This document shows, in pieces, positions 22,221 through 22,340 of a stretch of DNA of 24,919 nt. The position numbers were made by a program, and so were the translations under genes. Location of the stretch: positions 66,404 through 91,322 of IMG/VR virus record IMGVR_UViG_3300021579_000001; one strand, written 5' to 3'. Under the pieces are notes generated by a model. That model did not search any database and was not told the origin of the DNA. It saw only the letters and a program-made list of their open reading frames with translations. Position 1 is the first letter of the stretch, and each line of letters begins with the position of its first letter. The DNA comes from a virus.

Positions 22221-22304
22221 AAAGTGCCCCTAGAGGAAAGGGGGATAACTCTAGGGGCACTATAACCAACACACACCCATAGAAAGAAAGGAGGAACTAT
22301 GAGT
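22221..22304 (-). ncRNA. Candidate two-hairpin small RNA / leader with anti-Shine-Dalgarno loops
   Basis: ACTCATAG-TTCCTCCTTTCTTT-CTATGGGT, then GTGCCCCTAGAG-TTATCCCCCTTTC-CTCTAGGGGCAC-TTT. It starts 6 nt after a -10 box. Confidence 0.65.
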
Positions 22305-22310
22305 AATACT

Positions 22311-22340
22311 AGTTTAACAATGTGCGTTAAATAATGTCAA
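22311..22340 (-). promoter_or_regulatory. SigA/sigma70-type promoter of the RNA array
   Basis: TTGACA (22340-22335)-N18-TAAACT (22316-22311) with TGn extension; overlaps the hsp20 3' end. Confidence 0.8.

Follow-up and report, generated by a model that had tools for sequence, protein, structure and literature searches.

The virus record is a complete, terminally repeated genome of 91,322 bp, and the window, by which we mean the whole stretch of 24,919 nucleotides analysed here, is its final 24.9 kb. Two WhiB-like genes mark the virus as a putative phage of actinobacteria, the level at which we assign its host, and no tyrosine integrase was found in the phage genome. Fresh water is the source of both its relatives and the RNA runs considered below; acI bacteria (Nanopelagicales) served as a stand-in host, from which the real host may differ. 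On the minus strand, the element of interest has hsp20, encoding a small heat-shock protein, on one side and a 1.4-kb non-coding cluster on the other (Table 1). The cluster holds tRNA-Asn, tRNA-Gly, tRNA-Met, an odd tRNA and the tRNA-like domain of a tmRNA, and a two-way terminator at 20782-20811 closes it.

Some neighbouring features deserve mention in their own right. A tRNA-like gene at 21025-21113 (-), scored by Rfam at 37 bits and labelled '???' by ARAGORN, is abnormal in its anticodon arm. The 83-nt tmRNA tRNA-like domain at 20817-20899 (-), with an Rfam score of 64.6 bits, lacks an mRNA part, and RNAs like this mini-tmRNA lie 3' of the first hairpin in loci L004, L019, L086, L087, L181, L272 and L281 of other phages, among others. 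The inter-tRNA spacers at 22000-22130 and 21750-21930 (-) are structured; the spacer found 3' of tRNA-Gly in the window is conserved 3' of tRNA-Asn in L005, and the RNA run X4 carries a variant of 22011-22211. The hsp20 leader at 22873-22910 (-), of the GUUGUCGUCUAAGGAG type, is kept across relatives and is a possible thermometer.

Table 1. Features around the hsp20-tRNA junction, and the best-pairing initiation region in the window
Feature	Position	Strand	Remarks
hsp20 (small heat-shock protein)	22327..22872	-	PF00011, E 5.5e-15; -35 box inside last codons
-35 box TTGACA	22335..22340	-	promoter-like pair in 42/46 hsp20-anchored loci
-10 box TAAACT	22311..22316	-	18-nt spacer from -35
Predicted small RNA	22208..22305	-	ends inferred; start at about 22304 by prediction
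Hairpin 1	22275..22304	-	arms 22304-22297 and 22282-22275; 14-nt loop 22296-22283
Linker, G/U-rich	22262..22274	-	kept in L004, L005, L192; partly in L006
Hairpin 2	22223..22261	-	12 bp, 13 with basal A-U; 13-nt loop 22248-22236
tRNA-Asn(GUU)	22135..22207	-	heads downstream non-coding cluster; 5' end at 22207
Micro-ORF, 11 codons	22299..22334	+	behind mirrored SD; rejected as function
Best in-window candidate target	17765..17790	+	initiation region of 80-aa gene at 17782

All the coordinates and motifs of an earlier note on this DNA (TTGACA-N18-TAAACT, two hairpins, their loops and a final UUU) are present on the minus strand. The TTGACA/TAAACT pair is the best promoter match (10/12) within 15000-24919 and, judged by its sequence, is a sigma-70-type promoter overlapping the hsp20 end. 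Variants of the -10 box (TAAACT, TATACT or TAAGCT) lie about 5-8 nt 5' of the first hairpin in hsp20-linked homologues and in L173. Because the -35 hexamer also codes for the last Hsp20 residues, the protein accounts for part of its conservation; the -10 box of the homologues falls largely or wholly beyond the CDS and is conserved, at a spacing of 16-18 nt. The RNA would be about 85 nt long if it ends at the UUU, or 97 nt if RNase P releases it at the 5' end of tRNA-Asn. Its 90-nt fold has a predicted energy of -31.3 kcal/mol (z -5.4), equalled by none of 200 shuffles. Folding also indicates that, where transcription reads through, the linker can lengthen hairpin 1 as far as the -10 region, and native upstream ends outperform swapped ones in L005, L004 and L192, though not in the window. 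The loop of hairpin 2 holds UUA and CCCCCUUUC, and the stem of this hairpin is followed by UUU only. The earlier note had likened the loops to the actinobacterial 16S tail, and this was borne out: all 53 of the acI 16S 3' ends retrieved finish in CCUCCUUUCUA, and loops 1 and 2 have, respectively, 10 and 6 nucleotides in common with the actinobacterial tail.

To see how this arrangement fares in other phages, we gathered loci by way of the Hsp20 protein or the codons of its C-terminus, that is, blind to the downstream sequence. In 42 of the 46 loci, a promoter-like pair has its -35 element within the final hsp20 codons, and most of these loci open with a hairpin. The sequence CCUUUC stands in a hairpin loop in six of the 45 hsp20-picked loci (window excluded), compared with 0.05 expected in shuffles; part of the member list below was found with the loop motif in the search pattern, so that this is the one unbiased test, and it replaced a lax null (at least 6 nt anywhere) whose 9 versus 3.5 was uninformative. 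Three of the six loci have two hairpins (L004, L005 and L192) and three have one (L006, L020 and L181). Further hsp20-linked members are L086 and L093, and a lower-GC phage group has one loop with an invariant core behind its own promoter. In L173/L190, a promoter and two such loops lie remote from both hsp20 and tRNAs. Model R1 also picks up L093 (E 4e-6), L020, L086, L173/L190 and L006. One candidate, L030:1803, looks like a member by its linker and was rejected, as the model does not retrieve it.

The earlier note had named loops kept over co-varying stems in related phages as a test, and this is what we observed. In hand-anchored alignments, where the sequences are few and related and the anchors dictate the closing pairs, 61 of the 63 cells of hairpin 1 (7 loci) are paired, with 12 G-U and no A-C, and 5 of 9 pairs have two-sided changes; in hairpin 2 (6 loci), all 66 cells are Watson-Crick and 6 of 11 pairs show two-sided change. 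The presence of G-U and absence of A-C fix the minus strand and argue for an RNA. (A model-fitted alignment, 93.7% paired with 0/500 shuffles as good, includes chance matches and was left unused.) At the same time, 18 loops from 14 loci have 6-10 nt in common with the tail of acI 16S rRNA, and CCUUUC(U) is found in 17 of the 18; this core is the end of the actinobacterial tail and fits an E. coli-type tail less well. Rfam gave no match to the RNA in the window or the homologue loci, an exact two-loop pattern search gave none either, and the single match of a further pattern search was discarded as a chance one inside a CDS. Among the matches listed for cultured phages, there were tRNA matches only. 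In 121 Nanopelagicales genomes, model R1 found terminators and weak matches, no homologue, and none of 21 host hsp20 loci has an anti-SD loop behind it. Judged by this conservation and by the empty searches, the element appears to be a real, conserved and uncatalogued phage RNA.

Metatranscriptomes provide a view of its expression. The region is present as contigs in four freshwater metatranscriptomes. Near-identical contigs cover hsp20 and 21150-21659 and leave 20300-21000 uncovered, and one contig (22274-22575) runs from hsp20 through hairpin 1. Such contigs give neither strand, ends nor level and cover hairpin 1 only together with hsp20; hairpin 2 lies outside their cover, a gap that carries no weight either way, and the RNA runs X3 and X4 hold partly relatives' sequence. 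The contigs thus hint at transcription and read-through from hsp20, whose mRNA probably runs on into hairpin 1. Further read-through into a tRNA or mini-tmRNA, proposed in the earlier note for the tRNA array, is plausible in this phage as well as in L004, L005, L086 and L181. Separately, a non-coding piece of about 500 nt, at 21150-21659 (-), has the best cover in two metatranscriptomes; a relative's version reaches depth 122 and has internal deletions. It has no Rfam match and is a candidate abundant structured RNA.

Read as its reverse complement, hairpin 1 from its 5' arm through its loop gives an entire initiation region, comprising SD, spacer and start codon. The CAU at 22301-22299 is an anti-start triplet, placed at SD-to-start spacing two bases 5' of the loop. 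In the seven hairpin-1 homologues the triplet has the same offset: it would pair with AUG in four, with UUG in L006 and with GUG in L093 and, by wobble, in L086. As three states occur where only four pairs are possible, the pattern is weak evidence, and the triplet may be nothing but the trace of an origin from an inverted gene start. If hairpin 1 mirrors an initiation region in this way, the plus-strand SD-N5-ATG, which the earlier note had feared might simply serve a translated micro-ORF, becomes a by-product, not a refutation. It is extremely improbable that the loop is a mere mirror of the RBS of such a micro-ORF, or a chance feature. A start codon does occur at the proper distance from the mirrored SD in six of seven hairpin-1 homologues; yet the ORF ranges from 3 to 66 codons, its sequence is unconserved with no shared peptide, and its start is absent in L086, L020, L181 and L173. 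Moreover, the G-U pairs mark the minus strand, and plus-strand read-through is blocked by the two-way terminator.

The position behind hsp20 is occupied by other hairpins in 39 of 45 relatives. On the Hsp20 tree, the anti-SD label requires eight changes, seven of them forced by supported branches, and the RNA therefore looks like a swappable cassette in a promoter-first slot rather than a clade marker. The downstream partner differs among homologues, being a tRNA, a mini-tmRNA or an ORF. In L192 a second promoter-like sequence precedes the tRNA, and members of the L198-208 clade differ in the downstream SD but not in the loop core; both observations favour action in trans. Acting in cis, the loops would pair with the SD of their own hsp20 mRNA, as part of its 3' UTR, or of a downstream gene, and could provide feedback or a temperature switch. 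Such an element fits the read-through from hsp20, the extended hairpin 1 favoured in the read-through form in three of four homologues, and the SD-led ORF found downstream in L006, L020, L093 and the L198-208 clade. However, pairing with the hsp20 initiation region is weak (-8.6 kcal/mol), no same-strand ORF follows in the window, L004, L005, L086, L181 or L192, the constant loop of the L198-208 clade faces a varying SD, and the RNA has its own promoter. We regard regulation in cis as distinctly unlikely.

The slot holds other hairpins of note. One recurring hairpin, CCUGAGCA...AAACUGCUC, lies behind hsp20 and 5' of an SD-led gene or mini-tmRNA in L006, L044, L051, L053, L063, L115, L136, L139, L140, L145, L147, L272, L292, L293 and L309, with no Rfam match in the loci scanned. 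Other conserved hairpin classes with distinct loops (L087, L285, L306, L308, L312; L289, L296; L012, L033, L034; L017, L280, L288, L295, L299) represent several uncatalogued small RNAs.

Loops of the hairpin 2 type extend beyond this slot. Searching other viral contigs with a pattern based on hairpin 2 gave 30 distinct hairpins with long stems, of which 29 lie outside long ORFs and many directly behind a stop codon; in the unconstrained part of the loop, UUA is present in 19 of 30 long-stem hairpins versus 7 of 34 short-stem matches. Those scanned against Rfam gave no match, and two control genomes carry such a hairpin elsewhere. These hairpins of other phages may be anti-SD RNAs borne on 3' UTRs or else protein sites, and the latter possibility keeps a structural rival alive. 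According to it, the element is an end-module that combines a protective 5' hairpin of the tRNA/ncRNA transcript with the 3' end or terminator of hsp20, its pyrimidine loop being a protein or nuclease site. That most promoter-sharing relatives open with some hairpin, often with a plain tetraloop, that the anti-SD label is so scattered on the Hsp20 tree, that hsp20 RNA continues into hairpin 1, and that hairpin-2-class loops are intergenic in other phages, some with U-tracts, is all in line with such a role. Nevertheless, protection does not call for an open loop of 13-14 nt, or for one that follows the 16S tail both across two hairpins and across unrelated stems, nor does an end-module explain a promoter and two loops far from hsp20 and tRNAs in L173/L190. 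We consider such a structural or protein-binding role rather unlikely.

Single intergenic hairpins with a UUA...CCUUUC loop were recorded in other phages, in L408-L481, at G157:19449 (-) and at G159:87027 (+), often directly 3' of a stop codon. The window itself has another terminator-like hairpin at about 4793-4835 (-), 3' of the capsid operon, with 15 bp and a C-rich loop (CCCUCCUC); its stem and loop are conserved in G154, G157, G158, G160 and G161, and as the following gene has the RBS GGAGG at 4732, an anti-SD function in cis or from a 3' UTR is conceivable.

If the RNA acts in trans, which messages would it meet? By crude gene calls (starts chosen by best SD, spurious ORFs included), a 5-mer SD precedes 29 of 34 small plus-strand genes at 1-13.5 kb and 7 of 9 at 83.4-87.2 kb, compared with 17/45 replication-arm genes and 19/44 structural genes. 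We call the former putative early genes from their position and size; the p-values of early versus other genes are inflated, because short genes were retained only with an SD, and were not relied on. Actinobacteria are rich in leaderless mRNAs, and the earlier note had suggested that the RNA favours leaderless phage messages. This idea found no support: the phage is more SD-led (78/162 genes) than the stand-in host (83/357 in 400 kb of Planktophila versatilis), and the major capsid gene has the RBS GAAAGG here and in six of seven relatives, so that there is no simple sparing of late genes.

Among 2323 phage start windows, the best predicted hairpin 1 duplexes involve the amidoligase gene (genome 1340) and a WhiB gene (genome 13190), both at -23.5 kcal/mol, and then the gene at window position 17782 (-21.1 kcal/mol, third; net -9.0 after hairpin 1 opening). 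In the last case the predicted pairing spans SD, spacer and AUG with two bulges; as a target, this region is not kept in L364. Seven of the eight best-pairing called genes, including amidoligase and WhiB, belong to putative early clusters on the plus strand. However, duplexes with the stand-in host are equally strong, a cross matrix of 11 RNAs and 12 sequence sets revealed no preference for the own genome, the starts of amidoligase, WhiB and HTH orthologues (in relatives' genomes that are partly fragments) do not co-vary with the RNA, and an AUG-AGY excess is not above that in control phages without hsp20-linked RNA (p 0.2). Hence the loops are generic. In the same vein, the RBS matches pointed out in the earlier note do exist at 17765 and 18645, but any mimic of the 16S tail would produce them, and they single out no private target; as to its proposal that SD-led host or early-phage mRNAs are masked, the putative early genes fit best, whereas host shut-off is not singled out. 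Independently of pairing, several small genes at 17755-18660 (+) share a junction motif, CTTATCAAAGG...AACAA, before ATG, which also occurs at genome 10401 and 11550.

The strength of the amidoligase and WhiB duplexes raises the possibility of an immunity RNA like c4, with a single private phage target. The c4 RNA is processed by RNase P, and the RNA described here would likewise be the leader of a tRNA transcript, released by the same enzyme; mirroring of a whole initiation region by hairpin 1 also agrees with such a role. Yet no integrase was found in the phage, the amidoligase starts of L004 and L364 do not track their own hairpin 1, and the own genome is not preferred, all of which makes a c4-like RNA very unlikely.

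The most likely reading, to which we attach moderate confidence, is that of a phage-encoded, trans-acting RNA resembling cuckoo and 6C RNAs, whose redundant loops would mask ribosome-binding sites. It is supported by the 16S-tail-like loop core kept over changing stems and enriched in the blindly gathered loci, by the varying downstream partner, by the best pairing with putative early clusters and by the anti-start triplet. Host SigA RNA polymerase would begin at about 22304, and the 3' end would be formed at the weak U-tract or by an RNase P cut from pre-tRNA-Asn. Needing no chaperone, the loops could then nucleate on ribosome-binding sites of the GAAAGG/AGGAG type, in the manner of 6C loops, whereupon hairpin 1, which has 8-9 bp including G-U pairs, may open and its CAU pair with the start codon, blocking 30S binding. 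With less support, strongly SD-led messages might be damped in general. As the RNA accumulates, its main sink would be putative early genes of the phage itself, which are small and rich in SDs (about half of the weight of the explanation), the alternatives being SD-led host messages (about a third) and messages of a co-infecting relative (the rest).

Some observations speak against masking in trans. A strong SigA promoter would be active as soon as infection begins, which sits uneasily with a shut-off of early genes. The own genome is not preferred, initiation regions do not co-vary and the stand-in host offers equal duplexes; most relatives have other hairpins in the slot; and the predicted RNA is known from sequence and from contigs devoid of strand, ends and level. 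A bolder version is possible, if doubtful: an exchangeable cassette of freshwater actinophages mimicking the 16S tail, in this phage as the antisense of a complete initiation region, might be a timer that shuts off SD-rich early genes of the phages themselves or SD-led translation as a whole, with the same loop module spread across unrelated phages as 3'-UTR hairpins.

How does this RNA compare with known systems? Exposed SD-complementary loops conserved over stems make it a candidate member of the functional class of trans-acting anti-SD sRNAs. The cuckoo or alpha-r14 RNAs, which are RSs0680/CcsR1-4 and NfeR1 (PMC4615179, 10.1101/2025.11.14.688489), are the closest in layout, and NfeR1 silences many mRNAs through anti-SD loops (10.1101/2025.11.14.688489). 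Like them, the phage RNA has adjacent hairpins with variable stems and redundant anti-SD loops, located behind an upstream gene; two to four adjacent hairpins of this kind, as in cuckoo RNAs, are seen in the window, L004, L005, L192 and L173/L190, next to single-loop forms. Unlike them, it has the loop core CCUUUCU in place of the CCUCCUCCC that each cuckoo loop carries, comes in one- and two-hairpin forms, resides in an actinobacterial phage rather than in alphaproteobacterial replicons, and has a sigma-70-type promoter of its own without a proper terminator. The cuckoo and alpha-r14 Rfam models gave no match at E 5. With the 6C RNA (RF01066) it shares two stem-loops, pyrimidine loops and the host phylum, but its loops are U-rich mimics of the 16S tail and it is phage-borne: instead of about six C in a row, loop 2 has five, loop 1 at most two and the homologues 2-5. 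The RF01066 covariance model found nothing in the phage genome at E 10, and 6C was not found in five acI genomes, by a search that also missed the cut-off in Corynebacterium. In M. tuberculosis, 6C binds RBSs (panD, dnaB) without chaperones (PMC6486639), which makes the mechanism feasible in Actinobacteria; here, similar loop-RBS pairing is predicted from computed duplexes and would repress translation. The phage RNA would work like cuckoo and 6C RNAs, yet it belongs to neither family, since it has the loop motif of neither and matches neither's model.

Several Firmicute RNAs with C/U-rich loops mask SDs, namely RsaE/RoxS, LhrC and the pneumococcal csRNAs, the last of which pair with both SD and start codon. 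The same is true of RNAIII, another Firmicute RNA (PMC4615179). The phage RNA has similar SD-masking loops, and pairing with both SD and start codon is possible for hairpin 1, but those RNAs are host-encoded and have no sequence or Rfam relation to it. The c4 antisense RNA of phages P1/P7 (PMC12197685) is also a phage RNA blocking RBSs through loop-displayed sequences; it acts on private targets in a temperate immunity circuit, whereas here the loops are generic, no integrase was found and no target co-varies. Neither an Rfam C4 match nor a cloverleaf fold was found, nor were private co-varying sites in the own genome. A review of phage sRNAs mentions SD/RBS pairing only for AsxR/FnrS and c4 (PMC12197685), and the literature searched, its coverage incomplete and large catalogues of candidate RNAs aside, yielded no SD-masking RNA with redundant loops in a lytic phage or actinophage.

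If confirmed, the RNA would mean that a phage steers translation with a generic 16S-tail mimic and no protein partner, in a phylum that, to our knowledge, lacks Hfq. Being shorter than 100 nt and having a consensus promoter, it lends itself to testing in laboratory actinobacteria with the same 16S tail, and the promoter-first slot behind hsp20, which related phages fill with several uncatalogued RNAs, widens the interest. In bacteria, SD masking by RNAs with redundant loops is established; what appears to be new is a version borne by an actinophage, with the core of the actinobacterial 16S tail.
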